From an uncultured Eubacteriales bacterium (lineage in GTDB: Bacteria > Acidobacteriota > Aminicenantia > Aminicenantales > Aminicenantaceae): a stretch of 64,000 bases of DNA. The notes beneath the pieces are model-generated. The model was given only the letters and a program-made list of their open reading frames with translations, did not search any database and was not told the origin of the DNA. Position 1 is the stretch's first letter. Each line of letters starts with the position of its first letter. Below are positions 16,365-34,542 of the stretch, piece after piece. The position numbers and the translations under genes were made by a program. The stretch is taken from positions 35,939 through 99,938 of the forward strand of contig CAYSCW010000004.1 in NCBI GenBank assembly GCA_964429795.1, read 5' to 3'.

Positions 16365-18452
16365 TTACTGTTCTTTAATCACCTTTAAGCGGGCATCCAC
16401 CACCAAGGCACCCTTTCCAGGCTCAAAAGCAAACACAGGATTGAGATCTATCTCCCCGATCTCTGGAAACTCTGAAACCAGTTGAGAGAAACGAATCATG
16501 ATCTCAACCAGCTTCTCCAAATCGACTCCTTTCTCTCCTCTTGTTCCTTCCAAGAGCGGATAACCTTTGATGGAACGGGCCATCTCCCAAGCGTCATCTT
16601 CAGAGAGAGGGGCTAACCTGAACACGACATCCTTCAAAATCTCCACAAAGATTCCTCCTAAACCAAACATGATGGTCGGCTGAAACCCCTCATTGGCCTT
16701 GGCACCCATGATCACTTCCTTTCCGTCTTTGAGATACTCCTGGAGAATGAACCCGGGCTTTTCTTTTTCAAATTTCCTGGACATTGCCTCAAAGGCTGTC
16801 TTAAGGGCCTCTCTTTCCTTGAGATCGAGCTTAACTCCCCCAACTTCTGTCTTATGAACGATCTCTTCTGAATCCACCTTCAGGGCCAGCGGGTAGCCGA
16901 CTTTGGCTGCAGCCTCTTCCAGCTCATCTTTTTTCCGGATTCTTGTGGTGATCACGGTGGGAATGCCGTAACTGCGGAGAATCTCAAAGACATCAGCCTG
17001 GGGGATGAATTTTTCCTGGCCTCTGTGTCGGCTTATGACTGATTCGGCTGTCTCTCTATCAACATCGTACTTCTTATAGAAGGGAGCCTCTTTCTGGATC
17101 ATTTGGCTGTATCGAGTCATCGAAGAAAGAACTCTTGAGGCGGTTTCAGGAAAATCATAAACAGGAATGCCGCTTTCTCTGATGAGACGAACCACTTCGG
17201 CCCATCTCTCGATGGTCATCACCACACAGACAATCGGCTTTTCAGCAGTCTTACCGATTTCAGACAGCCTGCGGGCCACACCTTCGCAGTCAACAAAGGG
17301 CGGGGTGACAAAGTTGAGCAGAAGTGAGTCGATATGGGGATCTTTAAGCAGAGTCTCCACCGTGCCTCCATACTGTTCAGGGCCTGCTGTGGCGACCACA
17401 TCCACAGGATTGGATACTATGGCCTCTGTAAAGAGGAGCTTACCCAAAGCTTCTTTGGTCTCAGGGCTTAATTCCGCTAATTTGAGTCCTGCAGAGATAG
17501 CCTCATCCACAGAGATTATGGCAGGTCCTCCTGTATTGGTGACGATAACCACGCGATCTCCTTTGGGCACAGGCTGGGTGGAAAAACCTATTGCTGCCTC
17601 CACCATCTCCTCCTGGGAGTGGAATCTGAGGACACCGCTCTTCTGGAAGATGACATCAGTGAGCGTGTCTTGTTCGATCAAGGAACCGGTGTGGGAGGCA
17701 ACAGCCACCGCCCCCTCCGATGTCTTTCCTGATTTCAAGGCCAGAATCGGCTTCTCGGGTGTGATCCGGCTGGCAACTTCAAGAAAACCAGCAGGGTCTT
17801 TCAAGGTCTCAATGTGAACCATGATGACTCTTGTCCCCTCGTCCTGGCCGTAGTACTCGATGATCTCATTCATGCTCACATCCGCCTCATTGCCAAAACT
17901 GGCGTACATCCTGATTCCCATACCCACTTCATAGAGATGAAGCTTCAGAGTTTCTCCCACTCCTCCACTCTGAGCGACGATGGAGATATTACCGGGGAAC
18001 ATGGGAACAAAGGTAAAATTGGCATAGACGGAGACATCAGGATCAGAATTCTGAATCCCTTGAGAATTGGGACCGTAAATTCGCATGCCGTACTTGTGAG
18101 CAATATCCACAATCTGCTTCTCCAGCTCCAGTCCCTCCTCTCCCACTTCCTTGAAGCCAGCCGTATGGACGATGGCGAACTTCACTCCTTTCTTCCCGCA
18201 TTCTTCGATGACATGAGGAACCAAAGTGTTTTTGATGGAAATGTTCACCAAGTCAATATCATCAGGAACTTCTGTTACAGAGGGAAAAGCTCTGAAACTC
18301 TTGATATATTTGGATTTGGGATTGATGGGATAGATGGGACCCTTGAAATTATGATTAAGCAGATTGGTGATAACGATATGACCGATGCTCAAGGGATTAT
18401 TTGAAGCACCGATGATAGCCACTGACTTCGGTTTAAATAAAGAATCAAGCAT
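16365..18452 (-). CDS. Acyl-CoA synthetase (NDP-forming), fused alpha/beta subunits (acetyl-CoA synthetase ADP-forming family)
   Basis: N-terminal CoA-binding motif KSVAIIGASNNP, a central succinyl-CoA-synthetase-like flavodoxin domain and a C-terminal ATP-grasp domain; 695 aa. Confidence 0.8.
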   Translation of the reverse strand: MLDSLFKPKSVAIIGASNNPLSIGHIVITNLLNHNFKGPIYPINPKSKYIKSFRAFPSVTEVPDDIDLVNISIKNTLVPHVIEECGKKGVKFAIVHTAGFKEVGEEGLELEKQIVDIAHKYGMRIYGPNSQGIQNSDPDVSVYANFTFVPMFPGNISIVAQSGGVGETLKLHLYEVGMGIRMYASFGNEADVSMNEIIEYYGQDEGTRVIMVHIETLKDPAGFLEVASRITPEKPILALKSGKTSEGAVAVASHTGSLIEQDTLTDVIFQKSGVLRFHSQEEMVEAAIGFSTQPVPKGDRVVIVTNTGGPAIISVDEAISAGLKLAELSPETKEALGKLLFTEAIVSNPVDVVATAGPEQYGGTVETLLKDPHIDSLLLNFVTPPFVDCEGVARRLSEIGKTAEKPIVCVVMTIERWAEVVRLIRESGIPVYDFPETASRVLSSMTRYSQMIQKEAPFYKKYDVDRETAESVISRHRGQEKFIPQADVFEILRSYGIPTVITTRIRKKDELEEAAAKVGYPLALKVDSEEIVHKTEVGGVKLDLKEREALKTAFEAMSRKFEKEKPGFILQEYLKDGKEVIMGAKANEGFQPTIMFGLGGIFVEILKDVVFRLAPLSEDDAWEMARSIKGYPLLEGTRGEKGVDLEKLVEIMIRFSQLVSEFPEIGEIDLNPVFAFEPGKGALVVDARLKVIKEQ

Positions 18453-19229
18453 TTAACCCTCCTTTATTTCCATGGCATACAATGCCGCTCCCAAGGCGCC
18501 TGTCAACTGAGGAAAGGGAGGCACAAAAATTTCTCTCCCGATTTTTTCTTCGAACATTTTAACCAAAAAGGGATTGTAAGCCACCACTCCCCCAGTCATC
18601 ACGATATTTCCTTCCAAAGGATCCATCTCCAAGGCTCTCTTTATCACAGAGCCAAAAATGCCCCTCACCAAATCTGGCACCTCCACCCCTTCTCTGATTT
18701 TGGTCAGTATTTCTGTGGCCGTAAACACTGTGCAGTAGCTTCCGATCTCGATATTTCTTTTCGACTTTTCTGCCAACCCATTGAGTTTATCAATCTTAAT
18801 GCGCAGTCTGTTGGCGATCTCCTCGAGGAATGCCCCTGTGCCGGCTGCGCATTTGCGATTCATCCTGAAACCCGTCCTTTTCCCCGAATCATCCACCCTG
18901 ATGATCTTGCTGTCCTGTCCTCCGATATCGATCAAGGTATGGGCATGGGGAAAATGGAGATAGCTTCCCTTGGCATGACAACTGATTTCTGTCTTTATCC
19001 TGTGGGCAAAGGCAACATTCCGTCTTCCATAACCCGTGGCTACGACGGCGTGACTGTCAGCGATTCGCCTTTGAGCCTTCTTCTTTGATTCCCCGAAAAC
19101 CCGCTCAGCCGCAGCTTTAAAATCAACACCCGAATGCCTGACCGCATAGCCGAGGATATCCTTATTTTCATCGAGGATGATCGCTTTTGTAGTAGAAGCT
19201 CCGACATCCACTCCCACAAAATAATTCAT
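18453..19229 (-). CDS. CoA-substrate-specific enzyme activase (BadF/BadG/BcrA/BcrD/HgdC ATPase family)
   Basis: ASKHA-fold N-terminus FVGVDVGASTTKAIIL and two Cys positioned to bridge a [4Fe-4S] cluster; 258 aa, like HgdC/BcrD. Confidence 0.8.
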   Translation of the reverse strand: MNYFVGVDVGASTTKAIILDENKDILGYAVRHSGVDFKAAAERVFGESKKKAQRRIADSHAVVATGYGRRNVAFAHRIKTEISCHAKGSYLHFPHAHTLIDIGGQDSKIIRVDDSGKRTGFRMNRKCAAGTGAFLEEIANRLRIKIDKLNGLAEKSKRNIEIGSYCTVFTATEILTKIREGVEVPDLVRGIFGSVIKRALEMDPLEGNIVMTGGVVAYNPFLVKMFEEKIGREIFVPPFPQLTGALGAALYAMEIKEG

Positions 19230-19245
19230 CAGACTGGCTTTATAT

Positions 19246-20490
19246 TTATTTCGCCTCCAACTGCTCGATAAAGGCTTCGATATTTGTCTTGGCCTGCTCT
19301 TCTGAATAACACCGGAGATCGTTCAGGTCACCGTTTATAGTCAGAGAGGGAAGATTCAATTTTTTCTCCAGTCTTTCGGGCATGCCGTAACGATTGTTGG
19401 AATTGTTCGGGCAGGTCTTTGCATCATGGAACAGAATTCCATCTATTTTGAATTTTCGCACCATATCTTCGATGTATTTCTCCTTATAATTCTCATCCCT
19501 GACTATGAATATCTCTGTATAAGCCCGAACCATACTTATGAAGGGATCTTCAGGATCGAAGGAATCAAAGATCCAGCTGTTGCAGTAGGTGGAAGCGATA
19601 ACAGCTGTCCGTAGTGCGATGAAAAACTCGGCCAGACTCCTCAATTTTCCCCAGATCGGCATCCCTTCCCAGTAAAGCCGGTATTTTTCATCCCCTACCG
19701 CTCCTTCTCTGTTAGCAATCCTTTCCTCAAGTTCCTGGAGAAGCACTTCATAATACTCCACAGCCTGGGGACTTCCTCTCAAAACCACGGCCGGCCCCAT
19801 ATGGATGGTTCCATCAAAAAAGCTCATCGGGGCGGGAAGAGCCATGTTGACTTCCAGAACTTTTTTCCACATTTCTGTGCATTTTTTGGATAAGGCTAAA
19901 ACCTCACGAAATCTATCTATATCGAATTTATTGCCAGAAATCTTTTCTAGAGATGGGATCATGTCCTTTATCTGCTGAACAATGACCTGGAGATGATAAT
20001 CTTTGATCTCTCCTATGTTTCTGTAAGTAGATATACCAATTGCAGGAACGTTCAACTCTCTGGAATACCAGGAAAACCAATCCTGGACATCCCGGCACTG
20101 GTTGGTGTTGTAAACTAACACATCGGGCTTGGGAACCCCATCAATACCCTCGTAGGCTCGTGAGAGAGGAGTTTCTTTTTTTATGAAAGCACCCACATCA
20201 CTCGTTAAATACGAGCAAATATCCGGTGAATATCCGATAGCATTGCTCACGGGAATATAATCGTTGGCTGTACGGGTAGATCCCAGCATGGCACCGTGAT
20301 TCTCAGGATAATGGACAAGAAATCCTAAACTCAATAAAAGCTCAGCAGGGCCAACACTCGTGCACCAAGCTATTTTAGGCGATCCCTCCTTAGAAGCTCT
20401 ATCCATCTCATAAAAATAATCGGCCATGATCTTTCTCATATGACCTGTGGCCTTGATTTTTTTGATGAGGGATTTCTTTTCTTCGCTCAT
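19246..20490 (-). CDS. 2-hydroxyacyl-CoA dehydratase / benzoyl-CoA reductase B/C-like subunit (HGD-D family); single copy
   Basis: HGD-D family features, including a conserved C-terminal CPNNSNNRYG cysteine region. The likely start MSEEKK at 20490 has an AAGGAGG RBS 5 nt upstream. Only one such subunit is present where two are usual. Confidence 0.7.
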   Translation of the reverse strand: MSEEKKSLIKKIKATGHMRKIMADYFYEMDRASKEGSPKIAWCTSVGPAELLLSLGFLVHYPENHGAMLGSTRTANDYIPVSNAIGYSPDICSYLTSDVGAFIKKETPLSRAYEGIDGVPKPDVLVYNTNQCRDVQDWFSWYSRELNVPAIGISTYRNIGEIKDYHLQVIVQQIKDMIPSLEKISGNKFDIDRFREVLALSKKCTEMWKKVLEVNMALPAPMSFFDGTIHMGPAVVLRGSPQAVEYYEVLLQELEERIANREGAVGDEKYRLYWEGMPIWGKLRSLAEFFIALRTAVIASTYCNSWIFDSFDPEDPFISMVRAYTEIFIVRDENYKEKYIEDMVRKFKIDGILFHDAKTCPNNSNNRYGMPERLEKKLNLPSLTINGDLNDLRCYSEEQAKTNIEAFIEQLEAK

Positions 20491-20716
20491 TTTACCTCCT
20501 TCAAATAAAGACAATACTCTCTTTTGAGTTGCTGTGGTTTAACTTTTTAGGTGGGGAACAAGCAAAATCTCTTCCTTTTGAAAATATCAAAATATCAATA
20601 TTGCCATTTCAAGTCAACTGTTTCAAGCGAAATCATCTCTTTTTCCGTAATGAGGAAAGACATTTGATAGAATGAGGAATGGCGGCGCGGGTTTCCGTCC
20701 ATCCCCGACTGAATGG

Positions 20717-20745
20717 TTGACAGCGGGGAAATCAGGTGATATGTA
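20717..20745 (+). promoter_or_regulatory. Sigma70-like promoter candidate for the downstream hydratase/ADH operon
   Basis: TTGACA (20717-20722), 17 nt, TATGTA (20740-20745), about 60 nt upstream of the ATG at 20806. It lies in a 290-bp divergent intergenic region that also holds an AAAATATCAA direct repeat. Confidence 0.3.
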
Positions 20746-20805
20746 TTACATCTCAACTCCCATCAATCGACATTGATGAAAATCATCCTTTAAAAGAGGA
20801 ACATC

Positions 20806-21585
20806 ATGACTCAAAAAAATTATGAAAACGTCCTCTTTGAAATCAAAGAAGAAAAGGCGCTCTTAACCATCAACCGCCCCCCTTTAAACATACTGAATAT
20901 CGCGACAATGGAAGAAATGAATGAGGCTCTGCGTTCTTTAATGGAGAATATAGAAGTCAAAGTTGTGATTATATCCGGGAGCGGGGACAAGGCTTTCTCT
21001 GCAGGAGTGGATGTGGCTGACCATACAGAAGAAAAGGTAGAAAAGATGCTTCATGTCTTTCATGATATCTTCCGCAACCTCGCCAAACTCGATCAGGTCA
21101 CTGTGGCTGCCTTGAAGGGATTGACTTTAGGAGGAGGATGTGAAATCGCTCTTTTCTGTGATTTGATCATCGCCGCTGACAATCTGAAAATCGGACAGCC
21201 GGAGATAAAACTCTCAGTCCTTCCTCCCATAGCCCTATTGATCATGCCCCGCCTTGTGGGACTGAAAAAAGCAGCCGAGCTCCTGTTAACAGGAAAAACC
21301 ATCGATGCCCATGAAGCCGAGCGAATAGGTCTGATTAACAAAGTCACACCTCTTGACTCATTCGATTCTGAATTGGAGACCTTTATTCAACCCCTGACTG
21401 AGCTGAGCTTGGTGGGATTGAAGTATTCCAAAAAAGGAATCACCCTGGGATTAGAAACGGCTTTCTCGGAAGGACTGCAGAGGATTGAAGAGATTTATCT
21501 TGGAGAATTGATGTCCTCAGAAGATGCCCATGAGGGTCTCCGAGCCTTTATGGAGAAAAGAAAGCCTCTCTGGAAAAATAAATAA
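20806..21585 (+). CDS. Enoyl-CoA hydratase/isomerase (crotonase); candidate cyclohexa-1,5-diene-1-carbonyl-CoA hydratase (Dch-like)
   Basis: 259-aa crotonase fold (SGSGDKAFSAGVD, GGGCEIALFCD); immediately followed by a Zn-ADH, as in dch-had pairs. Confidence 0.65.
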   Translation: MTQKNYENVLFEIKEEKALLTINRPPLNILNIATMEEMNEALRSLMENIEVKVVIISGSGDKAFSAGVDVADHTEEKVEKMLHVFHDIFRNLAKLDQVTVAALKGLTLGGGCEIALFCDLIIAADNLKIGQPEIKLSVLPPIALLIMPRLVGLKKAAELLLTGKTIDAHEAERIGLINKVTPLDSFDSELETFIQPLTELSLVGLKYSKKGITLGLETAFSEGLQRIEEIYLGELMSSEDAHEGLRAFMEKRKPLWKNK

Positions 21586-22695: not shown

Positions 22696-24381
22696 TCAGG
22701 AGACTCTCTTAATGACCACCAGAGTCATGTCGTCCATCTGATCGGTCCCAGAAGTGAATTGCCGCACCTCATCGTGGATTTTATCCAGGAGCTTCTGAGC
22801 GCTTAATTTCGGTTTCTTTTTGATAAGACTGATCAGCCTCTCCTCGCTGAACTCTTCATTCTTTTTATTCCGGCTTTCGGTGATTCCATCTGTAAAGAGA
22901 AGAGCCATATCGCCAGGCTCTATGGTCATTGCATTGATTTCATAGGTGGATAAAGGAAACATTCCCAGGCAGAGGCCACTGCTTTCCAGACGTTCTATCT
23001 TCTCATTCTTCTTCAAGATCAGCGGGGGGTTGTGTCCGGCATTGATAAATCGCATTTCTCCATTCTTCCTGTTCAGTTCACAGAAGAAAAAGGTGATAAA
23101 ATTATTGGGGGCGGAGCTGCGATGGACAAAATTATTGAGCTTTCCGGCCATCTCCTCTAATTTATACAATGGGTGGAGCTCTGAATGGAGGGCTGCTCTC
23201 AGAGAAGCCATGAGGAGGGAAGCACTCACCCCCTTTCCTGAAACATCGGCGATCACAATTCCCAAACGGCAAGGGTCGATATCTATAAAGTCATAATAAT
23301 CCCCTCCCACTTGATAACAGGGGATATTGGAGCCTGCAATCTCAAAATTATCGCAGGAAGGATTCTCTTTGGGCAGAAAGTCTTTCTGGATTTGAGAAGC
23401 CAGGGCGAGTTCTTTCTCCATCTTTTCCTGCTCGATGGCCTTCTCGATAAGCTCAGCATTTTCGATTTTAACAGCAGCCAGATTGGAGAGAAGAGTCAAC
23501 AGCCGCAAATCCTCATCGCTGAATCTCTCAAGACTCATTATCCTGTCTGAATAGATGATTCCGATGATCTCTTTGTTGTTCCAGAGGGGAATACACATCG
23601 CTGAATGGATGTTGGATTTGATGATGCTGTCCATGGCTCTAAAACGGGTGTCTGCTTGAGCGTCAGAAGTGAGTATAGAGGAATGCTTGTCCATGGCCAT
23701 GTCGACAATGCTCTTGCTGACCTGGATTTTCTGGCCCATGAGGCGATCATTATTGATACGAACCACCTTTGGAATCAATTGAGGGGGATTGCCTTCCTTC
23801 AACATTAAAATCCCCCTGTCCATGGGAAGATGCTCACTGATAAGATCCATGATATACTCGAGCAGCTCGGTCAGGGGTTTGTGGAGGATGAGGGCTTGGC
23901 TGACTTTGCTCAAGATGGAATAAGCCTTATTTTCTGACTTGATCCTTTCCAAGTCAAAAGGTGTAGCTGTAGCAGCTTTTATGGTTGTCTCTATATCAGT
24001 TTTTTTCAGGATTTCTTTAACATTGACGATGGTGTTGACATTGACCGAAGAGGAAGGATCGTCCATGACTTCCACATTGGTTGAAATCTCCTTATCGAAG
24101 AAAATCCTGGTGGAGCCGATGAGGATTTCGTCACCCTTATTGATTCGGGTCTCAGCCTGTATTTTTTTTCCGTTGAGAAAGGTCCCATTTTTGCTGGAAT
24201 TGTCCCGAATCGCATATCCAGATTCTATCGTATAGATAAAGACATGATAACCTGAACAGAAGGGATCAGGAATATAGATATCGTTATCGGCAGAACGACC
24301 GATAGAGATCTTCTTTTTTTTCAACGGGAAACGGATGATGTCCCCTTTTTTCGGATAGACGAACAATCGAGGCATGACCAA
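22696..24381 (-). CDS. FHA-GAF-PP2C (SpoIIE/RsbU-type) serine phosphatase
   Basis: N-terminal FHA signature (ISIGRSADNDIYI...SGYH), a central GAF-like region, and C-terminal PP2C motifs (GIVIADVSGKGVSASLLMA, FTDGITE). Confidence 0.75.
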   Translation of the reverse strand: MVMPRLFVYPKKGDIIRFPLKKKKISIGRSADNDIYIPDPFCSGYHVFIYTIESGYAIRDNSSKNGTFLNGKKIQAETRINKGDEILIGSTRIFFDKEISTNVEVMDDPSSSVNVNTIVNVKEILKKTDIETTIKAATATPFDLERIKSENKAYSILSKVSQALILHKPLTELLEYIMDLISEHLPMDRGILMLKEGNPPQLIPKVVRINNDRLMGQKIQVSKSIVDMAMDKHSSILTSDAQADTRFRAMDSIIKSNIHSAMCIPLWNNKEIIGIIYSDRIMSLERFSDEDLRLLTLLSNLAAVKIENAELIEKAIEQEKMEKELALASQIQKDFLPKENPSCDNFEIAGSNIPCYQVGGDYYDFIDIDPCRLGIVIADVSGKGVSASLLMASLRAALHSELHPLYKLEEMAGKLNNFVHRSSAPNNFITFFFCELNRKNGEMRFINAGHNPPLILKKNEKIERLESSGLCLGMFPLSTYEINAMTIEPGDMALLFTDGITESRNKKNEEFSEERLISLIKKKPKLSAQKLLDKIHDEVRQFTSGTDQMDDMTLVVIKRVS

Positions 24382-24419
24382 CCTTCATTTTTAATTATAC
24401 TCTTATAGGAAAAAAGATT

Positions 24420-26942
24420 TCAAGATACTCCTGATCTTTCTAGAGTCCTCATATTCTTTTTGCACTTCCTAACTTTATCCTCAAAGGGAATATCGTCGAT
24501 CAAGGGCAAGAGAAATTCCATCATTTCTTTCTTCAGCATGTTATCCAGAAGTTCGATGGAATAGTCGATGGATTTTTTTGTCCCTGCAGTGATGTTCTGG
24601 TACGCCTTGATGACATCTTCTTTAGCATAGACCAGACTCAGAAGTTCAAAAATATGCTTAAGGCAACGCGCTAAATTTTTTTCTAGCTCCTTAGCTAGAG
24701 ACACTTTTTTCTCATCCCCTTTCAAGCCGTCGATTTCTATCAAGATCAGATAGCTTTTCTTTATCATCCGCAGAGTTTCAGGAAGAACAATCTCATCTCG
24801 AAAATGGATATGGGGGTGTTTTGATTTCATCTTGAACATGGCCTCGATAATCTCCGACTCTACATCACCGTCTCTTCTTTTCAGCCCTAAGGAAAGGAGA
24901 TAGGCAGCTTTTTGAGTCCCTGTGTTGGCTAAGATATCAGGGATGGCCTTTCGGACTCGGATGTCTTCATCCTGGTCTCCCAGATAATCTTTTAGTGTCC
25001 CCACGATTTTGTTTCCATATTCAGCCAGAGCCTCACTGGCTATCCTTTGGGTAGAAGGCCTGCGAAGATGAGGAATGATGAGAGGAACAAAATCTCTTGT
25101 CTTCAGTTTTCCAGCGCTCTCCACAGCATATTTGATGACTTCTGGCGATTTATCTCGAAGAAGCTTGTTGAGATTATGAGTAAGAGAGGAGGTTGGTTTC
25201 ATCATACCCAGAACCTTGGCTGCTTCCATCTTGGACACTTCCGCATCCTTGCTTTCCTCATCGGCGATTTTATCGATGTGCTCTTTCATCAACTCCTGGT
25301 AGACATCGAGGGACATGATTTCCTTAACCTGGGCATCGAGATCTTCCTCCTCCAGAACATCATCCATTTCAGGAAGCAAGGCCTCGCCATCCAATTCCAG
25401 AAGGGAATCCATAGAGCCGGCTTTTATTTCATCAGATTTGCCGGAGATTATTCCTTTTAATGCAGGACTTAATTTATCTCTTTTGACTAGGTCAAAAAGA
25501 TTCATAGCATAAAGGACTGAACTCCTTTTTTTGCTTTCCAGAGTGTCAAAAACAAGTTTTGTCATATCGATATCAATCTTTTCTCCGATAAATTTATCCG
25601 CGTCTTCCCATTTTATTCTTAAGTTTCTCTTGACAATACCCACATACTCCTTGGTAATCATGAGATTAAGGCCAATCCATACAATGAGAAAAATTATGGT
25701 GACCAAACTGATTCGGACGACAGATAAATGAAAAACGAAAAGGAACAATAGGATAATGAGAGCTCCAAGACCTTTTGCAAATTTGTTGACAAACATATCG
25801 ATGAAGACCTTGGCTTTATATTTGATGTCAGGAGAAATGGGGATGTAAAGAAGCTCTCTCACTGACTGATTGAGGGAATAGGCCAGACTTTTATCCGCCC
25901 CTTTAATCAAGACTCCCCAGTAAATCAAATAGAGCATGGGGATGAAGAAGATGGCCACAGAACCCACCAATAAGAGAAAAGGGGCAACTAAAAGCGCCGC
26001 GCGGATTCCGAAGTTCTTCAGGATACGGCTGGTGAGAAGGACATGTAGCAAATAGGAAAATACAAGCATTCCAGTAAAAAAAATCCCCAGAAAAGAAGTC
26101 ATAGCATCTTTCTTGACCAAAACCTCCCCATCTACGGCCTCTGTGAAATGCTTTTCAACCACAGAATTGAACTGAAAATCGATCAAAGTGGTCACCACAA
26201 AAGTCGCAATCATGATCCCGCAGAGAAGCAGCAAATAACGATTTTTCCTGATCAACTGTAGGCTTTTGCCGTATCCTACCCTGGTTTTTTTCTTATCTCT
26301 AGTGGGCTGAGTCTCTTCCTCTTTTTCTCCTGGTATGCATTTTGAGATGAAAGTGATAATAACCAGACAAAAGATAAGCATCAGAGGACAAATCAAAAGG
26401 AGGTTTTCTGTTCCGAATTGCATGGCCAACAACGAGGCCAAAAGGGCTCCTGCTACTCCTCCCAAAAGTCCTCCGCTTACCAGAAAGCCAATCAGTCTTT
26501 TTGCCTGCCTTGGGTTATAGATATCGTTAACCAATATCCAGAATTGAGTGACAGATGTGGCTATGAAAATATCTGCCCAAAACCAATAAATTATGGAAAG
26601 CCAATCCCAGTTATATCTGAAAAACATCCAGAACAGCAAAAGACAGACTATAAAAAAAACCAGGCTCAAAGAGATGTAAACACGTCTCTTCATCACATGC
26701 AACAACCTGGAATTTAAAGAAACCACAAAACCGATCAAGACGGCTGTCAAAAGGTAGGCATAAGGGAGTCTGGTGAAAGACAGGCTTTCCAGGAAGAGCG
26801 AAATCTTGACGGGTTTGATGATGTAAACCGAGGAAGTGATGAGGAAAAAATAAATGAACAAGAGAATAGAGGAAGAAACTTCCCCTGCTCTTATGTCAGC
26901 AAAGTAGGATAAAAGCTTTTGGACTCGGTTCTTAGCCATCAA
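24420..26942 (-). CDS. TLC-family (ATP/ADP-translocase-like, TC 2.A.12) transporter fused to a C-terminal HEAT-repeat domain
   Basis: 840 aa. The N-terminal ~430 aa are polytopic and carry the TLC signature block FWILVNDIYNPRQAKRLIGF (compare Tlc FWQFANQITKIAEAKRFY). The C-terminal ~400 aa are soluble with repeated helical HEAT/PBS-lyase-like units. The gene overlaps its paralog by 11 nt. Confidence 0.6.
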   Translation of the reverse strand: MMAKNRVQKLLSYFADIRAGEVSSSILLFIYFFLITSSVYIIKPVKISLFLESLSFTRLPYAYLLTAVLIGFVVSLNSRLLHVMKRRVYISLSLVFFIVCLLLFWMFFRYNWDWLSIIYWFWADIFIATSVTQFWILVNDIYNPRQAKRLIGFLVSGGLLGGVAGALLASLLAMQFGTENLLLICPLMLIFCLVIITFISKCIPGEKEEETQPTRDKKKTRVGYGKSLQLIRKNRYLLLLCGIMIATFVVTTLIDFQFNSVVEKHFTEAVDGEVLVKKDAMTSFLGIFFTGMLVFSYLLHVLLTSRILKNFGIRAALLVAPFLLLVGSVAIFFIPMLYLIYWGVLIKGADKSLAYSLNQSVRELLYIPISPDIKYKAKVFIDMFVNKFAKGLGALIILLFLFVFHLSVVRISLVTIIFLIVWIGLNLMITKEYVGIVKRNLRIKWEDADKFIGEKIDIDMTKLVFDTLESKKRSSVLYAMNLFDLVKRDKLSPALKGIISGKSDEIKAGSMDSLLELDGEALLPEMDDVLEEEDLDAQVKEIMSLDVYQELMKEHIDKIADEESKDAEVSKMEAAKVLGMMKPTSSLTHNLNKLLRDKSPEVIKYAVESAGKLKTRDFVPLIIPHLRRPSTQRIASEALAEYGNKIVGTLKDYLGDQDEDIRVRKAIPDILANTGTQKAAYLLSLGLKRRDGDVESEIIEAMFKMKSKHPHIHFRDEIVLPETLRMIKKSYLILIEIDGLKGDEKKVSLAKELEKNLARCLKHIFELLSLVYAKEDVIKAYQNITAGTKKSIDYSIELLDNMLKKEMMEFLLPLIDDIPFEDKVRKCKKNMRTLERSGVS

Positions 26943-29439
26943 TTTTTTTTAAAAGCGAAGAGGTCTTGAGCAGGCCTCGGCACCTTTTCACTCTTTGTGC
27001 AAAAGGAATATTTTCGATGAGGGGAAGGAGGATGTCTCTAATTTCCTTTTCCAGAGTATTGTCAAGAAGTTCAACAGCATAAGCAGTCGAATCCTTGGTC
27101 CCTTCCTTGATGTTTTGATAGGCCCTGAAAATATCTTCATGCGTGTAGATGAGTCCCAGCAGCTTGAAAATATTGGCCAGAGACTGAGTAAGATCCTGAC
27201 GAGCGGGCTTTTCCGCTTGTTCTTTCTTTTCCTTAGTCAACGCTCGATAAAAATCAATGAGATTTGTACAGTAATTCTTGACTTCTTTGGCAATTTTTCG
27301 CTTGACGATCTCTTTCTGGAATAGAAAATCAGGATTATCCGAGCGGATTCTATCTAAGGCATCGATCAGTTCTGGATCCAGATCATCCTTTTCCTCTGCA
27401 AGTTCCCAGGTGAGGAAGTCGAGCGCTTCCTGGCCTCCAATGCGTGCTACGACTTTGACCAATTCTTTTCTCAACTCTATATCCACCTCAGAATCTCCTA
27501 TATAATCAGAAAGAGTGCCGACGATTTTTTGGCCGTATTTTTCAAGAGCTGTACTGGCATCTTCACGGGTAAGACGGCTGGATAACTTCTGGACTATAGA
27601 AGGAACATAATCTCTCTGCTTTAGCCTGGCTGCACTCTCCACAGCATACTTGCTCACCTCAGGTGATTCTTCATGGAGAAGGTCTTCAAGCGTATGGGTA
27701 AGAGGAGAATGAGAGTCCATCATTCCCAGAGCTTTGGCTACTTCCATTTTGGCGATTTCTGTCTCCTTGCCTTCTCTAGACATGACTTTCTCCACATAAT
27801 CCTTCATGACTTCCTGATAAACATCCAAAGACATGATCTCTTTTATCTCTTTCTTCAAGAATTCTTCACTGATATCATCCTCTGTTTCAGGTATCAGAGT
27901 GGTCTCTTCGGTCTCTAAAAGCACTCCCAATGAGGAGACTCTTATCTCATCAGATTTGTAAGAAATTACTTTTTTCAGCTCAGGAGTCAGTTTGTCCTGT
28001 TTGATCAAGTCGAACAAATGCATGGCATATAAGACAGAACTCCGATTCTTGCTCTCGATGGTGTCAAACACCAATTTCGTGTAATCCACATCCATTCTTT
28101 CTGTTATGAGCTTATCTGCTCGATCCCATCTCTTCTCCAACTTGTTTTTGACTGTACTCACATATTCCCGACTGACCTTAAGGTTGAGGAGAATCCAGAC
28201 AAGAATAAAAAGAACCGAAACAAGGCTAGTAAATCGGATGCCGATGGGCACCAGAACAAGGATCATGAGAATTAAAGCCCCAATGCCCTTGGCAAATCTG
28301 TTGATAAATATATCGATGAATATCTTTGCCTTAGTCTTGAGCTCTGGAGAGACAGGAATGTAGAGTAGCTCCCTAACGGATTGATTGATGGAATAAGAAA
28401 GGCTTTTATCACTCCCCTTAAGAAAGATGGCAAAAACGATACTGGCAAAGACAGCAATCCCTAAGGAGCCGAGAAGTAATAGAAGAGGAAAAAGCAGAAG
28501 AGTCAAACGAATACCATAGCGCTTGATGATGTTGCTAGTCATGAGTAGCTGAAGGAAGAACGCGAAAACCATCAACGCAGCATAAAAATGCCCAAAAAAG
28601 AATGTCAGATTATCCTTTCCAGAGATATTGATATCAATAACTCCTTTGAACTGAAAATCGATAAAAGTAGATACAATCCATGTGATGGTCACCATGGCTG
28701 CCAGCAATTTTAGATAAGAGTCTCGCCTCACTGTATTGAAACAATCCTTAAAACCCACTTTAAGTGGTTCTCCCCCTTTGCTTATATCTCTATTTTTGCC
28801 CGCTTTCACCTTATCAAATGTAGATTGTCGTTTCCTGTGCAACACAAAGATATAATGAACGATGAAAATACAGACAAAAAACATTCCGCAAGCTATGAGA
28901 AGAAGATGATTGGAAACTTTTGACTTAGCTAAAAGTCCAGCCGTTTCATATCCGACGATGCCTCCTAAAATTCCCCCACTCCCCATGAATCCGATCATCC
29001 GCTTAACCTCTCTTGGATTAAACACATCGTTAACAGTGATCCAAAATTGAGTCATCAGAACCACCAACATATTGACCCAGATCCAAAAAGCAAGAGGTAT
29101 CCATTCCCATTCCTTAGGGAAAATCCACCAAAAGAGCAGGGAGGTCAGGATGAAAAAGACAAGGCTGAGGGTAAGTAAAAGATGTCTTTGGATTTTGGCC
29201 TGGAGTTTAGAATGAAAAGCAACCACAAAACCTATGATTATAGCTGTAAGCAAGTAGGCAACAGGTAATTTTTTATAGGACAAAACATCCAAATAGAAGG
29301 CATCTCTCAAGGGTTTGACAATGGAGAAAGGAGCTGCGATAAGAAAAAAATAAAGAAAAAGAAGAAGAGCTATAAGCTCTTCACCAGGATTCAAATCGAC
29401 GATACGCGATAAAACTTTATACAGGCGATTTTTGGCCAT
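26932..29439 (-). CDS. TLC-family transporter fused to a C-terminal HEAT-repeat domain (paralog of 24420-26942)
   Basis: 835 aa with the same architecture; TLC block FWITVNDVFNPREVKRMIGF. The two genes are tandem and translationally coupled. Confidence 0.6.
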   Translation of the reverse strand: MAKNRLYKVLSRIVDLNPGEELIALLLFLYFFLIAAPFSIVKPLRDAFYLDVLSYKKLPVAYLLTAIIIGFVVAFHSKLQAKIQRHLLLTLSLVFFILTSLLFWWIFPKEWEWIPLAFWIWVNMLVVLMTQFWITVNDVFNPREVKRMIGFMGSGGILGGIVGYETAGLLAKSKVSNHLLLIACGMFFVCIFIVHYIFVLHRKRQSTFDKVKAGKNRDISKGGEPLKVGFKDCFNTVRRDSYLKLLAAMVTITWIVSTFIDFQFKGVIDINISGKDNLTFFFGHFYAALMVFAFFLQLLMTSNIIKRYGIRLTLLLFPLLLLLGSLGIAVFASIVFAIFLKGSDKSLSYSINQSVRELLYIPVSPELKTKAKIFIDIFINRFAKGIGALILMILVLVPIGIRFTSLVSVLFILVWILLNLKVSREYVSTVKNKLEKRWDRADKLITERMDVDYTKLVFDTIESKNRSSVLYAMHLFDLIKQDKLTPELKKVISYKSDEIRVSSLGVLLETEETTLIPETEDDISEEFLKKEIKEIMSLDVYQEVMKDYVEKVMSREGKETEIAKMEVAKALGMMDSHSPLTHTLEDLLHEESPEVSKYAVESAARLKQRDYVPSIVQKLSSRLTREDASTALEKYGQKIVGTLSDYIGDSEVDIELRKELVKVVARIGGQEALDFLTWELAEEKDDLDPELIDALDRIRSDNPDFLFQKEIVKRKIAKEVKNYCTNLIDFYRALTKEKKEQAEKPARQDLTQSLANIFKLLGLIYTHEDIFRAYQNIKEGTKDSTAYAVELLDNTLEKEIRDILLPLIENIPFAQRVKRCRGLLKTSSLLKKIDG

Positions 29440-29469
29440 GGAAGGCTCTAAAGGAGAAAAGCCTGATCT

Positions 29470-29817
29470 TTACTCTTTAAAAAAGCTCTCCAAAGCCATC
29501 TTTTCATCATCGAATATTTCTAAGACTTTGGTGAGCATGGTGACTTGGAAAACAAGATAGAGTTTCTTGGATATCTTGGCGATTTTCAGTTTCCCTCCCA
29601 AGTTATGCGTGGATATATAACTGGCTAAGATCTCTCCTACGCCAAAACTATCGATGAAATCAACATTCTGAAAATTGAGAAGGATGTTGCGCTTTCCAGA
29701 ATCCAATTGATCTTTGACTAGCTGATGGAGTGTGATATCAGTGATATCAGACCTTCGGATTTCTCCTTCGATGTCAAAAATGACGATATCATTCTTTTCT
29801 CTTGTGTTTATGACCAT
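29470..29817 (-). CDS. STAS-domain anti-sigma-factor antagonist (SpoIIAA/RsbV-like)
   Basis: 115 aa; the STAS fold has a conserved phosphorylatable Ser region (FIDSFGVGEI). It lies 30 nt upstream of the TLC-HEAT genes on the same strand. Confidence 0.7.
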   Translation of the reverse strand: MVINTREKNDIVIFDIEGEIRRSDITDITLHQLVKDQLDSGKRNILLNFQNVDFIDSFGVGEILASYISTHNLGGKLKIAKISKKLYLVFQVTMLTKVLEIFDDEKMALESFFKE

Positions 29818-30069
29818 CTTTTCCCGTCCCCTTTAAAAGGCTTGAATCATAAGCAGGTGGCCTTTTTTGACTGACGTAAGTCCATGATTTTTGAAAGCTT
29901 CCCTCTGAATCGTTTACGCTTTCCTCTCTTATGTCTCTTTCTAAGCTTTTATCAAAAGAAAAATTGAAAGTCAAATATGAACTCTCCCCTGTTGCAGGGG
30001 CAAGCGCTAGGGAAAGGTATAGACCTAACTCCCTGATTTTGATATTAGTATAAGTGAAGAGGAACATAA

Positions 30070-31215
30070 ATGAGGGCTCAGGAATCGTTAAAAAAAGGAA
30101 ACAAGGTTTCCATGAAAAACATCACAGGAAAGAATCCGACGAGAAAAATTAAATCCTCTCTTATCTTTACCCTGCTCATCTTCCTCCTTTTTTCCTGCCT
30201 GTACGCAGGCAAAATCCAATGTGTTTGGACGGGAGTCGAAAAAATCATTGCTGTGGGAGATATCCATGGCGATTACAGCAATTTCCTGAAAATCTTAAAG
30301 GGAGTGGGACTCATCGATGAAGCTCTTCATTGGTCAGGCGGCAAAACCCATTTTGTCCAAACTGGAGATATTATGGACAGAGGCCCTGACGCTCGAAAAG
30401 TCTTTGACTTGCTGATAAAACTGGAGAAGGACGCTGAAAAAGCGGGAGGCAAGGTCCACGTTCTTCTTGGCAACCATGAGGAGATGAATATCACTGGCAT
30501 ATCCTTCGATTATCCCGGATATGTCACGGTGGAGCAATTTGTCTCTTTCTTGCCTGGCAGTTATAAAAAAAAGGAAGAAAAAGAATTCCAAGAACAGTCA
30601 GGCAAAGAGAATCTTAGTGGCTCGCATTCGGATCTTTCCTCGAATAATTCCTTAAGAGCGAAATGGGAAAATCTCCTCAAGACCGACTTGAGTGCTCGGA
30701 AGGAATATATCATTTTTTTCAACAAAAATTATGGTAAGTGGTTGCTTAAACACAATGCGGTCATCAAAATCAACGATGTCATATTCGTCCATGGAGGGAT
30801 CAGCAAAAAATTCTCAAAATGGAAACTGGAGGATATAAACGAGCAGTTGCGGATAGAGCTCTCCTTTCTGCGCAGGGCAGCCATCAATTCATCGCCTTCA
30901 AAAATTACCTTCACTCCCCAAATTGTTTACAAAAGCGAAGGGCCTCTCTGGTATCGAGGTTTAGCCACCATGAATGAGGCAATTTTCGAGGCAGAGGTTG
31001 ATAAAACCTTGACTAATCTGGGAGCAAAATACATGGTTATTGCTCATACACCGCGAATGGGCAGCCCAGTTATGGCAGAGGAGTATTTAAGACGTTTTCA
31101 CGGAAAAGTCTGGATTATCGACACGGGAATTTCAGAATTTTATGGAGGATTTTTGAGTGCTTTAATAATCAAGAATGGAGAATTTTCTCTTTGGGCGGTG
31201 GGTCATGAACGATAA
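30070..31215 (+). CDS. PPP-family metallophosphatase (PP1/PP2A/ApaH-like) with an N-terminal signal anchor
   Basis: All PPP signature motifs are present: GDIHGD, GDIMDRGPD, GNHE, HGG and a GH motif. The N-terminus has a basic stretch followed by one hydrophobic helix (KIKSSLIFTLLIFLLFSCLYA), implying extracytoplasmic or membrane-anchored topology. Confidence 0.75.
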   Translation: MRAQESLKKGNKVSMKNITGKNPTRKIKSSLIFTLLIFLLFSCLYAGKIQCVWTGVEKIIAVGDIHGDYSNFLKILKGVGLIDEALHWSGGKTHFVQTGDIMDRGPDARKVFDLLIKLEKDAEKAGGKVHVLLGNHEEMNITGISFDYPGYVTVEQFVSFLPGSYKKKEEKEFQEQSGKENLSGSHSDLSSNNSLRAKWENLLKTDLSARKEYIIFFNKNYGKWLLKHNAVIKINDVIFVHGGISKKFSKWKLEDINEQLRIELSFLRRAAINSSPSKITFTPQIVYKSEGPLWYRGLATMNEAIFEAEVDKTLTNLGAKYMVIAHTPRMGSPVMAEEYLRRFHGKVWIIDTGISEFYGGFLSALIIKNGEFSLWAVGHER

Positions 31216-32005
31216 AAATTATGTCCTTCTCATTTTCATCTGCCTCACTCTAGCCAATTGGTGCCTGAGCTTATCTCAATCGCCAGATCGAGGGAATTGG
31301 GACCAAGATAAACTGGAGAATTATCTGAGAACAGCTGAGATCATTTCTGTGGAAAAAGACACAGAAGCGGGAAGGACCGCACCGTGGAGAATCACACTCA
31401 ACGACGGAATAACTCAACGCCAAGGCCTCTTCAAGTACATCAATCGCTCCCGACCTTCCCTTCTTCCTGATAGTTATAAATACGAGATTGCCGCTTATGA
31501 ACTGGACAAACTCCTCGAGCTCAAAATCGTACCTCCCGTTGTGGAAAGAGAAATTGAAGGGACAACAGGTTCTCTTCAACTTTATCTAGAAGGCTGCATA
31601 AGAGAAGCCGAGAGAAAAAGGAAAAAAATAGATCCACCAGATCCTGTATCCTTTCAGAACATGCTGGAAGTGATCAATGTTTTTGAGAATTTGGTCCTTG
31701 AAGAGGATTGTTTTGATGCCAATGACATCCTGGTTGATCTTGATGAGTGGAAAGCGTATCGAGTCGACTTTTCCATGGCCTTCTCCCCTCTGCCTGAGAT
31801 CATTTCTGGATGCAAAATCAACAAGTGTTCTCGTAAATTCTACAACAACCTCCTCCAATTGGATGACCTTCAAGTCAAGAATAAACTCAAGCCATTTCTC
31901 AATGACCCAGAGATTGAAGCTCTGCTTCAACGCAAAAAAATCATCATCGAAAAGATCGGGCAATTGATTAAAGAAAAGGGACAAGATGCTGTCCTCTTCA
32001 ACTGA
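31205..32005 (+). CDS. Secreted minimal kinase-like protein, paralog 1 (RIO/Kdo/WaaP-like fold; catalytic motifs degenerate)
   Basis: Signal peptide MNDKNYVLLIFICLTLANWCLSLSQS. It keeps the paralog-family blocks K...YEIAAYELDKLLELKIVPPVVE, but has EEDCFDAND in place of the DRHxxN loop and VDFS in place of IDHS. Its ATG overlaps the phosphatase stop by 11 nt. Confidence 0.4.
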   Translation: MNDKNYVLLIFICLTLANWCLSLSQSPDRGNWDQDKLENYLRTAEIISVEKDTEAGRTAPWRITLNDGITQRQGLFKYINRSRPSLLPDSYKYEIAAYELDKLLELKIVPPVVEREIEGTTGSLQLYLEGCIREAERKRKKIDPPDPVSFQNMLEVINVFENLVLEEDCFDANDILVDLDEWKAYRVDFSMAFSPLPEIISGCKINKCSRKFYNNLLQLDDLQVKNKLKPFLNDPEIEALLQRKKIIIEKIGQLIKEKGQDAVLFN

Positions 32006-32173
32006 AAAGATTGAAATATCAAAGCTTCAGCAATAAATTGGGGAAATCAGTTAAAATCAAATTTCAAGGTTGTTTAGACCTGTTACAGCCAAATCTGCCA
32101 ATCGAACCCAGATAATAAAAGCAGAAAAAAGCCAAGAAGGAGGGATTCGGTAAAAACCGAAAACAATGAGAAA

Positions 32174-33547
32174 ATGAGAGGAAACGAAAAAGAATCTTCT
32201 GGCCTAGTCTATCGCTTTTTCCGGCTCTTTACAGTAGTCCATCCTGGTGAAGGGCTGACAGTTTTTCTCTTGACTCTTAATATTTTTTTGATCCTGACGG
32301 CTTATTCGATATTAAAACCAGTCAGAAAAGCTTTAATCTTAACAGGACAAACCGCCGAAATCGAAGCCTATCTTTTTGGAGTTATGGCTATAGTACTTAT
32401 CTTCGTCATAAAAATATTCAGCTACCTTTCTGCTAAAGTCCCCCGTCAATTATTGATCACCTGGGTTACCCTCTTTTTTATCTTGAATCTAGCCATTTTT
32501 TATGTCTTACATCTTGCGGGAACCCCTCTAGGTACGTTGAGTGTCATCTTTTACATATGGGTTGGGATATACAACGTTTTTCTCATTGCTCAATTCTGGG
32601 GCTTTTCCAACGATATCTACACAGAGGAAGAAGGAAAAAGACTATTCGTATTGATCATGCTTGGACAAAACCTGGGAGCTGTCATCGGCAGCAAGATCCC
32701 TTCCTTACTGGTAAAACCAAAAGGACCATTAAGCCCCTTTCATTTTCTACTCCTCACTGGAGCCATCCTGGTCGCCTGCATTGTATTAACCCTTATTATC
32801 CACAAAAGAGAGATGGAAAGTGTAAAAAATAAACAGGCCCATCAAAAGGCAAAAGAAAAACATAAGAAAAAATTGAAGGAGAAGCCTTTGCCAAGGGGAG
32901 GCGGTTTTCGTTTGGTGTTTAAAAGTAGATATCTTCTCTTCATCGCCTTGGTTATCTTGGTGCTGAATTACGTCAATACAAATGGTGAATACATCAAATC
33001 CAAAGTATGGGATCGCACCGCTGAGCAGGCTAAGGAAACCGAAAAGATTAAAGGTTCAGAGGCGGCAGAGGCTGAATTTCTGACCAAATTAGATTCTGAC
33101 TTCAATTTTTTGGTTAATCTCTTTGCCCTGTTCATTCAACTCTTTCTGGTCTCGCGTATATTCAAGTGGTTCGGAGTTAAAGGAGCACTCCTCTTCCTCC
33201 CATTCATTTCCATTGGAGGTTATTTTTTCATTGCTTTAGGAGCCTCATTTATCCGGGTTAAATGGGCTAAGATCTTTGAAAACAGCACAGATTACTCCCT
33301 AATGAACACAACTCGAGGCGCCCTCTTCCTCATAACATCAAGAGAAGCAAAATACAAAGCCAAGGCAGCCATCGATACTTTTTTCGTGAGAACAGGGGAT
33401 TTATTACATAGCCTGACCGTTCTCCTTGGCACCACCTACCTCGCTTTTAGCCTGGAAAGTTTCGCCAAACTCAATGTGGGCATAGCTGTAGTCTGGATAA
33501 TCCTCTGTTTATTGGTTATAAGAGAACACAAGAGGTTATCAGCTTAA
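32174..33547 (+). CDS. TLC-family (ATP/ADP-translocase-like) transporter without a HEAT extension
   Basis: 457 aa, about 12 TM; the signature block IAQFWGFSNDIYTEEEGKRLFVLIMLGQNLG matches Rickettsia/Chlamydia Tlc ([28 protein letters not shown]). Confidence 0.7.
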   Translation: MRGNEKESSGLVYRFFRLFTVVHPGEGLTVFLLTLNIFLILTAYSILKPVRKALILTGQTAEIEAYLFGVMAIVLIFVIKIFSYLSAKVPRQLLITWVTLFFILNLAIFYVLHLAGTPLGTLSVIFYIWVGIYNVFLIAQFWGFSNDIYTEEEGKRLFVLIMLGQNLGAVIGSKIPSLLVKPKGPLSPFHFLLLTGAILVACIVLTLIIHKREMESVKNKQAHQKAKEKHKKKLKEKPLPRGGGFRLVFKSRYLLFIALVILVLNYVNTNGEYIKSKVWDRTAEQAKETEKIKGSEAAEAEFLTKLDSDFNFLVNLFALFIQLFLVSRIFKWFGVKGALLFLPFISIGGYFFIALGASFIRVKWAKIFENSTDYSLMNTTRGALFLITSREAKYKAKAAIDTFFVRTGDLLHSLTVLLGTTYLAFSLESFAKLNVGIAVVWIILCLLVIREHKRLSA

Positions 33548-33708: not shown

Positions 33709-34542
33709 TCATCGCAAGTCTTTCACTTTGATTATTCCTCCTGAATCCTGGGCAATATACAGATAGCCTTCTTCATCCTTGGTGATCCCCTCCTGATTAT
33801 CTCCGAGAAATGCATACTCCTTAACTAACTTTCCCTCAAGGGTGATTTCCACCAGGATATTATCCGCATCACTGACAATATTCAACAGGCCTGTCTTCTG
33901 ATCATAGTACATGGCTGAAGGATCATCCATAGCAAATGGTAAAACCCGGATAATTCTTGCTTCTGCGATCTCAGATTCGCTTGTCCTGAGAGGAACCAGA
34001 ACCTCAATTATGCACGGAGGATCCCACTGATTGCCCATGTAGAATGTTCCACCTTCAGGATGGTTCTCATCGGGAACAAAAGCAACGGACTCAATCCCGT
34101 TATCATGACCTTCTTTCTGTTTTTGAAGAAAATTGGGATCGTTCCCAAATGTTCTATTAATAGGGAATCGCCGGGTAACTTTTTTTTCCTCTGGATCAAA
34201 CTCAAGGAGAACATCTTCTCCTTCAATGATTATGTAAAGAAGACCAGATTGAGGAGCGACTGTAATGCCTTCCAAATCACCGGGAATTTTTACTCGCGAC
34301 ACAGGACTTCCATCTGTCTCTATTTCGAAGATCTCCCCTTCATCACTGACCACAAAGAGAGTTTTCCTGAGAGGGTGGAAACAAATATCAGAAGGTTCAA
34401 CAATACTTTGTTGATCTATATTTCCTCCAAATCCAACGGGTCCCAACCATTCGTAGGGGAACCGGATAGTTGGTGAATGTTTTTCCGAGGAACAGAAAAG
34501 TGTGAATATCATGATGCTCAATACAAAGACTTTTATTCTCAT
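33709..34542 (-). CDS. Secreted beta-propeller protein (SdiA-regulated/YjiK-like or phytase-like)
   Basis: Signal peptide, then repeated D/EGI(T/A) blade motifs (DLEGITVAP, NGIESVAFVPDE, QEGITKDEEGYLYIAQDSGG). Confidence 0.35.
   Translation of the reverse strand: MRIKVFVLSIMIFTLFCSSEKHSPTIRFPYEWLGPVGFGGNIDQQSIVEPSDICFHPLRKTLFVVSDEGEIFEIETDGSPVSRVKIPGDLEGITVAPQSGLLYIIIEGEDVLLEFDPEEKKVTRRFPINRTFGNDPNFLQKQKEGHDNGIESVAFVPDENHPEGGTFYMGNQWDPPCIIEVLVPLRTSESEIAEARIIRVLPFAMDDPSAMYYDQKTGLLNIVSDADNILVEITLEGKLVKEYAFLGDNQEGITKDEEGYLYIAQDSGGIIKVKDLR

Follow-up and report, generated by a model that had tools for sequence, protein, structure and literature searches.

A partner-switching gene cassette that encloses paired NTT-HEAT transporter genes in Aminicenantes and may act as a serine phospho-switch on transport

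Why should the genes of a bacterial partner switch enclose genes for membrane transporters? The question is raised by a run of four minus-strand genes in a 64,000-nt stretch of contig CAYSCW010000004.1 (the window), which derives from an uncultured sediment bacterium of the Aminicenantes. Here, a STAS-only protein and an FHA-GAF-PP2C phosphatase are encoded on either side of two paralogous transporters, NH1 and NH2, and an RsbW-like kinase is encoded further off. In an earlier note, made from the sequence alone, this arrangement had been taken for a partner-switching circuit tied to transport activity or to the HEAT domain rather than to a classical sigma factor. The reading that we favour, with a probability of roughly 0.45, is that these genes encode a full serine phospho-switch, built like a partner switch and devoted to the NTT-HEAT transporters whose genes it encloses; the unphosphorylated STAS protein would dock on these transporters. 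Such a switch most likely controls transport rather than gene expression. The genes concerned are as follows.

29470-29817, minus strand: STAS-only protein, 115 aa (Pfam STAS)
26932-29439, minus strand: NH1, NTT/TLC-HEAT transporter, 835 aa (Pfam MFS_1, TLC, HEAT_2)
24420-26939, minus strand: NH2, paralogous NTT/TLC-HEAT transporter, about 839 aa (Pfam MFS_1, TLC, HEAT_2)
22696-24375, minus strand: FHA-GAF-PP2C (SpoIIE-type) phosphatase, about 559 aa (Pfam FHA, GAF, SpoIIE)
36645-37130, minus strand: RsbW-like GHKL serine kinase (Pfam HATPase_c_2)

A check of the open reading frames (ORFs) returned the coordinates that the earlier note had given for the four cassette genes, and its domain calls (STAS, two TLC-HEAT proteins and FHA-GAF-PP2C) all lay above the Pfam thresholds. 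Its 30-nt gap between STAS and NH1 also stood, while the other two junctions had to be corrected, the overlap of NH1 and NH2 being 8 nt and not 11, and the last gap 44 nt and not 38. NH2 most likely starts at ATG 26939 rather than at TTG 26942, which produces an 8-nt overlap with the NH1 stop, of the form ATGGCTAA. Likewise, the phosphatase most likely starts at ATG 24375 and not at 24381; this ATG has a GAAGG ribosome-binding site and corresponds to a conserved Met3, and counting from it leaves the 44-nt gap after NH2. The true start of the kinase may be Met24, at 37061.

The four-gene arrangement occurs far beyond chance. Synteny in related genomes, which the earlier note had proposed to examine, was found on a large scale, with the cassette recurring in 137 loci from other genomes and metagenomes of Aminicenantes/Acidobacteriota. 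Four contigs inspected directly all (4/4) carried STAS, NTT-HEAT, NTT-HEAT and FHA-GAF-PP2C in this order. A genome scan, using one genome per species and seeded with a six-sequence alignment, yielded 80 loci, nearly all labelled Aminicenantes or Acidobacteriota, and 54 of these had adequate flanks: 34 showed STAS-NH1-NH2-PP2C (one with a split gene), eight showed STAS-NH1-PP2C, one had STAS and NH1 only, and the other 11 were solitary NTT-HEAT paralogues, which form a clade of their own. When metagenomes were scanned with distant NH2-like proteins as seeds, 80 further loci were obtained, and the cassette was present in each of the 47 with adequate flanks (47/47). Wherever a transporter of the cassette clades had enough flank, STAS was found upstream in all cases and the phosphatase downstream in all but one. 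The junctions in relatives were equally tight, with medians of 32-33 nt for STAS-NH1, 1-4.5 nt for NH1-NH2 and 43-46 nt for NH2-PP2C.

Do these genes hold the parts that a serine phospho-switch requires? The STAS protein scored 43.4 bits against a Pfam cut-off of 22.6, and its best relatives in the PDB were SpoIIAA proteins. A D-S-F-G motif contains Ser56, the counterpart in the alignment of the phosphorylated serine of SpoIIAA, and this residue is kept in at least 98% of STAS orthologues (n=104 distinct). The phosphatase gave Pfam scores of 65.7 (FHA), 48.1 (GAF) and 174.7 bits (SpoIIE/PP2C), and among its 106 orthologues the phosphothreonine-binding motifs GR and S-K-N-G of the FHA domain were conserved, as were the PP2C metal-binding motifs GGDYYD, DVSGKG and TDG, and largely also DDMT. 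The kinase scored 98.7 bits with HATPase_c_2, and its ATP-binding N, G1 and G2 boxes were conserved (n=34 orthologues). At the level of sequence, then, STAS carries the canonical phosphorylatable serine, and the predicted kinase and phosphatase keep their catalytic motifs. In one complete Aminicenantes metagenome-assembled genome (CP070825.1, loci L001/L050, 15054-16382) the phosphatase is truncated, being called as a 390-aa protein without the SpoIIE domain; a frameshift, a pseudogene or an error of assembly could account for this.

The kinase lies 7 kb from the cassette and is the only GHKL protein in the window, as the earlier note had it, with no second one detected when nearly all ORFs of 110 aa or more were scanned with Pfam. 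It is likely to be the cognate kinase of STAS. Of the 28 genome loci with enough flank, 17 had a homologue within 10 kb upstream. A sister lineage has a single transporter, and there the conserved neighbouring block to which the kinase belongs is found downstream instead; in 13 of its 17 loci the kinase comes directly after PP2C, the median gap being 10 nt. The resulting order of STAS, NTT-HEAT, PP2C and kinase places all three partner-switching proteins around a transporter, with no sigma factor among them. The synteny of the kinase and its place inside the operon of the sister lineage thus strengthen the transporter-tied reading of the earlier note.

A triad of this kind could act on the transporter in more than one way, and the conservation of its members bears on the choice. 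When 36 complete cassettes were compared with the window proteins, the median identity was 83.5% for STAS, the highest in the neighbourhood, followed by 73% for GAF, 70-73% for the transporter linkers, 68% for PP2C, 67% for FHA, 56% for the kinase and 54-60% for the transmembrane and HEAT domains. STAS is therefore far more constrained than its neighbours, as would be expected if it were a hub that meets several partners. In the manner of the textbook RsbV/RsbW and SpoIIAA/SpoIIAB switches, the transporter might instead replace the sigma factor: the RsbW-like protein would bind HEAT and keep the transporter in one state until unphosphorylated STAS captures the kinase and so releases the transporter. 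The synteny of the kinase, its position in the operon of the sister lineage and its conserved ATP-binding boxes all agree with this mechanism. The kinase, however, is far less conserved than STAS, about 7-10 kb of other genes separate it from the transporters in most loci, and it is always STAS, and not the kinase, that adjoins the HEAT-bearing gene. We consider direct binding of HEAT by the kinase unlikely, although it is the least unlikely of the three alternatives that are weighed here.

What, then, are the transporters on which STAS would dock? NH1 matched the Pfam families MFS_1 (57.7 bits), TLC (54.9 bits, cut-off 21) and HEAT_2 (29.0 bits, cut-off 27.7), and NH2 matched the same three with 68.3, 57.8 and 46.5 bits. 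The assignment of the N-terminal domains to the TLC family in the earlier note was borne out by these above-threshold matches and by the best structural match, the NTT1 ATP/ADP translocator. An AlphaFold model of NH1, with a mean predicted local distance difference test (pLDDT) score of 74.9, has 12 transmembrane helices and an alpha-solenoid at residues 540-835, and its best Foldseek matches were 9j3n (C. pneumoniae NTT1) and AtNTT1, with target template modelling (TM) scores of 0.68-0.71 and generic MFS proteins behind them. Membership of the NTT fold thus has good support from the model. The 12 modelled helices would also place the HEAT domain in the cytoplasm, on the same side of the membrane as the soluble switch proteins. 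Between the two lies a linker (residues 450-535) of conserved sequence and low model confidence; being conserved beyond both neighbouring domains and yet poorly modelled, it is a plausible docking segment. Of the three refuting outcomes that the earlier note had named, none was seen: the N-terminal domains match TLC, relatives conserve the arrangement, and for joint transcription the sequence offers hints in the tight or overlapping junctions and in a conserved promoter-like element before STAS.

NH1 and NH2 are 46% identical over their full length, and NH1-like and NH2-like proteins (about 830 aa) form separate old clades. The closest homologues of NH1 come from metagenome-assembled genomes of Candidatus Aminicenantes (class Aminicenantia, Acidobacteriota), database names of its homologues being 'Npt1/Npt2 family nucleotide transporter' or 'AAA family ATP:ADP antiporter', and a search of 1.84 billion cluster representatives returned 10,803 homologous clusters at E up to 0.001. 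The substrate is probably a nucleotide or a related phosphorylated metabolite. Three residues, R85, D138 and K345, all in cytoplasmic loops, set the STAS-associated transporters apart in a comparison with only 11 solitary sequences, and are a lead rather than evidence.

On the reading that we favour, unphosphorylated STAS would dock on the cytoplasmic linker/HEAT region of the transporters and change their activity, and phosphorylation of Ser56 by the kinase would withdraw it. The phosphatase would then restore STAS under the control of its input domains, with GAF binding a small ligand and FHA being recruited to a phosphothreonine mark. The HEAT domain would in this scheme be a docking platform for a small regulator, a place that in most other phyla would be taken by a cyclic nucleotide monophosphate (cNMP)-binding protein.

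This last point draws on the wider family. NTT-HEAT and NTT-HEAT-cNBD fusions were described as widespread and uncharacterised, with a cNMP-binding gene adjacent to NTT-HEAT, and fusions of both, already published, and with one Aminicenantes sequence in the data set (Major, Embley & Williams 2017, PMC5381601). The window proteins resemble that family in having an N-terminal NTT/TLC domain, a C-terminal HEAT domain and a small regulator gene right beside them. They differ in length (about 830 aa versus 920-1100 aa), in usually being tandem duplicates, and in their neighbouring regulator, which is STAS with FHA-GAF-PP2C and an RsbW-like kinase instead of a cNMP-binding protein. Proteins of the 920-1100 aa class are only 28-31% identical to NH1-like or NH2-like proteins, with homology over the full length. 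In four loci of the class of about 920 aa (from a Zixibacteria genome, two other complete genomes and an Aminicenantes contig), a cNMP-binding protein of about 145 aa directly followed the NTT-HEAT gene in 4/4, and a STAS gene was found in none; conversely, Pfam scans detected no cNMP_binding protein in the window. One of the four (L087) has a SpoIIE-domain protein about 5 kb upstream, past transposase genes. A small signalling protein beside a HEAT-bearing transporter is thus a recurring theme, and the presence of another such regulator, the cNMP-binding protein, beside HEAT in the wider family further strengthens the transporter-tied reading. Taken one step further, and tentatively, the HEAT solenoid could accept interchangeable small regulators as a general docking platform, with a cNMP-binding protein occupying it in most phyla and, in Aminicenantia, a STAS protein that is cycled by phosphorylation and often accompanied by a PilZ protein. 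A membrane transporter would then replace the sigma factor in a true partner switch; we hold this broader proposal to be doubtful.

The same evidence bears on the possibility that information flows the other way, with the transporters as sensors (transceptors) whose flux or occupancy is relayed through HEAT to the phosphatase or STAS, and the output of the switch lying elsewhere, for example in a sigma factor, an enzyme or another regulator. Partner switches usually do receive their inputs at the phosphatase, which here has conserved FHA and GAF input domains, and non-canonical STAS proteins with unknown targets are documented (PMC8256260). The neighbourhood, however, lacks a conserved candidate output gene, and the cNMP-binding regulator beside HEAT in related families looks like an input to the transporter and not an output from it. 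A sensory role of this kind seems to us quite improbable.

Several observations weigh against docking of STAS on the transporters, or on parts of that reading. Co-location in an operon proves a functional link and not binding. A third NTT-HEAT clade (P0258-like) is solitary, without STAS, PP2C or a conserved neighbour (loci L005-L009, L011, L012, L020-L022, L025, L027, L029, L032, L048 and L068), and a solitary paralogue and a full cassette can occur in one genome (e.g. L006 with L066, and L025 with L072). The plain NTT encoded beside the cassette is also without a STAS of its own. With TIGR00769, the model of curated NTP/NDP exchangers, the two transporters scored 53.2 and 52.0 bits against a cut-off of 387.2; being so divergent, and so far under that cut-off, they cannot be assumed to exchange nucleotides. 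Furthermore, a TTGAAA/18 nt/TATAAT element at 24423-24394 on the minus strand, in the gap between NH2 and the phosphatase, is the best sigma-70-like match of a 16-kb region (11/12 positions), and the phosphatase may, from this match, be transcribed also on its own. Lastly, in 12 of the 137 loci, which form one subclade (L013, L016, L017, L023, L026, L028, L030 at 7826-9532 on the minus strand, L035, L044, L073, L152 and L164), the gene just upstream of STAS, in divergent orientation, encodes an RpoD-type sigma factor.

This sigma gene raises the possibility of an ordinary anti-sigma circuit, in which the kinase would bind a sigma factor encoded elsewhere, possibly an RpoD-like one, and the transporters would be co-expressed regulon cargo. 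Such a circuit gains some weight from the RpoD-like gene that adjoins STAS in these 12 loci, and partly for this reason the interpretation in the earlier note has only partial support. An RpoD-like target of a partner-switch kinase has reportedly been proposed for Chlamydia. STAS and the kinase also gave weak matches to the RsbV, RsbW, SpoIIAA and SpoIIAB models, and STAS reached 52.0 bits with TIGR00377, just under the cut-off of 53.45; the equivalog cut-offs for SpoIIAA, SpoIIAB and RsbW were not reached by the window proteins. In contrast, the adjacency is limited to a subclade that has other flanking genes in common too, and the sigma factor, of about 500-570 aa with regions 1.2, 2, 3 and 4, has the canonical RpoD motif of the housekeeping type and is not of the group-3 SigB/SigF type. 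No sigma factor was found in the other 125 of the 137 loci. The window likewise has no sigma gene, as the earlier note had stated, according to a Pfam search that covered nearly every ORF of 110 aa or longer and a phmmer search of the six-frame translation with a sigma-70 query. The tight, invariant insertion of transporter genes between STAS and PP2C would, moreover, be unexpected for mere cargo. An anti-sigma circuit is the least probable of the three alternatives.

How does a phospho-switch on NTT-HEAT transporters compare with systems already described? With the RsbV-RsbW-RsbU/SigB and SpoIIAA-SpoIIAB-SpoIIE/SigF modules of Bacillus, the locus shares the same three protein types, the phospho-serine, the ATP boxes and the metal motifs, but it has no sigma gene in the operon or window, it has transporter genes between STAS and the phosphatase, and its phosphatase carries FHA and GAF input domains. 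Partner switches of non-canonical type, whose outputs are unknown or are not sigma factors, include SypA/SypE of Vibrio fischeri, BtrU/V/W of Bordetella and RbaV/W/Y of Rhodobacter (PMC8256260); as in these, there is a STAS-only protein whose phospho-state, and not a dedicated alternative sigma factor, appears as the output. The Syp, Btr and Rba systems have been linked with biofilm, type III secretion or motility, and the literature examined connects none of them with a transporter; here, by contrast, a candidate target is encoded inside the operon itself.

STAS proteins that regulate transporters are a further precedent, MlaB being a STAS protein in the MlaFEDB ABC transporter (PMC5016091). 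Like the C-terminal STAS domain of SLC26/SulP proteins, it brings a STAS fold to a membrane transporter whose function needs it. The SLC26/SulP domain is fused to its transporter, however, and MlaB binds the ABC ATPase, and both transporter families differ from NTT. To our knowledge, neither STAS unit is cycled by an RsbW-type kinase and a PP2C phosphatase. Non-sigma outputs of partner switches (PMC8256260) and regulation of transporters by STAS (PMC5016091) are thus known concepts. The earlier note knew of no described system with the present arrangement, and in our full-text literature search, likewise, no publication connected NTT-HEAT with STAS, PP2C or partner switching; the word STAS is absent from the only paper that names NTT-HEAT (PMC5381601).

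Two further kinds of signalling gene recur beside the cassette. In 29 of the 95 loci with enough flank (e.g. L004 7062-7412 and L060 8976-9326), the gene immediately before STAS, in the same orientation, encodes a PilZ protein of about 116 aa, with the fold of cyclic di-GMP receptors; the window itself is without a PilZ gene. Hanks-type Ser/Thr kinases with PD40 or TPR C-terminal regions lie beside the cassette in 25 of the 137 loci (e.g. L004 4231-6999, L047 5485-8688 and L005 6505-9066), and also occur just upstream of some solitary NTT-HEAT paralogues. Such kinases could write the phosphothreonine marks that the FHA domain of the phosphatase reads.

In most loci the cassette is preceded by a block of fixed orientations, consisting of the RsbW-like kinase, two secreted kinase-like proteins, a propeller, a plain NTT, a third kinase-like protein and a secreted metallophosphatase. 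The window shows exactly this layout, with the following genes in addition to that of the kinase.

30070-31215, plus strand: secreted PPP-family phosphatase (Pfam Metallophos)
31175-32005, plus strand: K1, secreted kinase-like protein (signal-peptide-like N-terminus)
32174-33547, plus strand: plain NTT/TLC transporter without HEAT (Pfam TLC)
33709-34542, minus strand: SdiA-regulated/phytase-like propeller (Pfam SdiA-regulated)
34941-35768, plus strand: K2, secreted kinase-like protein (weak kinase-fold matches)
35829-36641, plus strand: K3, secreted kinase-like protein (weak kinase-fold matches)

The first three form a divergent unit (30070-33547, plus strand) that has the same genes in the same order in most loci. 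The PPP phosphatase is a homologue of the Shewanella cold-active protein-tyrosine phosphatase (1V73/2Z72, E 6e-35), with the motifs GDIHGD, GDIMDRG and GNHE and a signal or lipobox-like N-terminus. K1, K2 and K3 are paralogues of about 270 aa with signal-peptide-like N-termini and a common motif, LIANEDRxQ...LIDHSRSF, K2 and K3 being 50% and K1 and K3 29% identical. Their kinase-fold matches were only weak (Fam20C, HipA_2 and PI3_PI4), K2 scored 46 bits with TIGR03843, and a sequence search of the PDB with K2 gave marginal FAM20 matches only (E 0.12-1.4); an AlphaFold model of K2 from a three-sequence alignment had a pLDDT of 47 and was not usable. K1-K3 may be secreted kinases. Together with the PPP phosphatase and the plain NTT, they hint at an extracytoplasmic phosphorylation or nucleotide-processing system, and, more speculatively, the block could be an extracytoplasmic phosphorylation system with its ATP supplied through NTT-type exchangers. 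At L059 (1630-3524) and about nine other loci, an ATP-sulfurylase and adenosine 5'-phosphosulfate (APS) kinase pair, for synthesis of 3'-phosphoadenosine 5'-phosphosulfate (PAPS), lies between the RsbW-like kinase and the secreted kinase-like genes.

Upstream of the cassette, an alignment of the 160 nt before STAS from 102 loci revealed one element.

29946-29974, minus strand: promoter-like element, TTGACT/17-nt spacer/TAAAAG, with TG before TAAAAG

It lies about 125-155 nt 5' of the STAS start, is 75-90% or more conserved, and is the only conserved part of the STAS leader. A generic promoter scan missed it and gave counts no better than chance. Neither the window nor the STAS leader matched a known RNA element of Rfam, and PADLOC gave no match for any of eight proteins, so that this is not a known defence system.

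Genes of beta-oxidation and of the xanthine-dehydrogenase family flank the conserved region and were rejected as members of the system, as the flanks vary among relatives. Beta-oxidation and CoA-ester genes are dense on both sides of the conserved block (window 8646-21585 and 39956-45790) and comprise thiolases, enoyl-CoA hydratases, 3-hydroxyacyl-CoA and acyl-CoA dehydrogenases, a 2-hydroxyglutaryl-CoA dehydratase with its activator, and an ADP-forming acyl-CoA synthetase. Relatives do not share these flanks. Several clusters of xanthine-dehydrogenase-family molybdoenzymes with XdhC, MobA-like and NTPase_1 genes lie at 3683-7428 and 49274-57542. On another Aminicenantes contig (L088, 1-2737), XdhC/MobA-like/NTPase_1 accessory genes adjoin a 945-aa NTT-HEAT gene and its cNMP-binding partner, and there may be a link between purine metabolism and NTT-HEAT transporters.

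NTT-HEAT proteins occur in cyanobacteria, Chlamydia, oomycetes and many uncultured phyla, and have been without a known function since their description in 2017. The operon described here offers a concrete and testable role for the HEAT domain, namely that of receiving a small regulatory protein, and would extend the short list of non-sigma targets of partner switches by a membrane transporter. NTT transport assays in Escherichia coli are established, and, given these assays, the small genes and the obvious catalytic residues, heterologous expression can test the hypothesis even though the Aminicenantes are uncultured. If true, the exchange of a sigma factor for a transporter as the target of the switch would join the two halves of the name STAS, sulfate transporter and anti-sigma antagonist.

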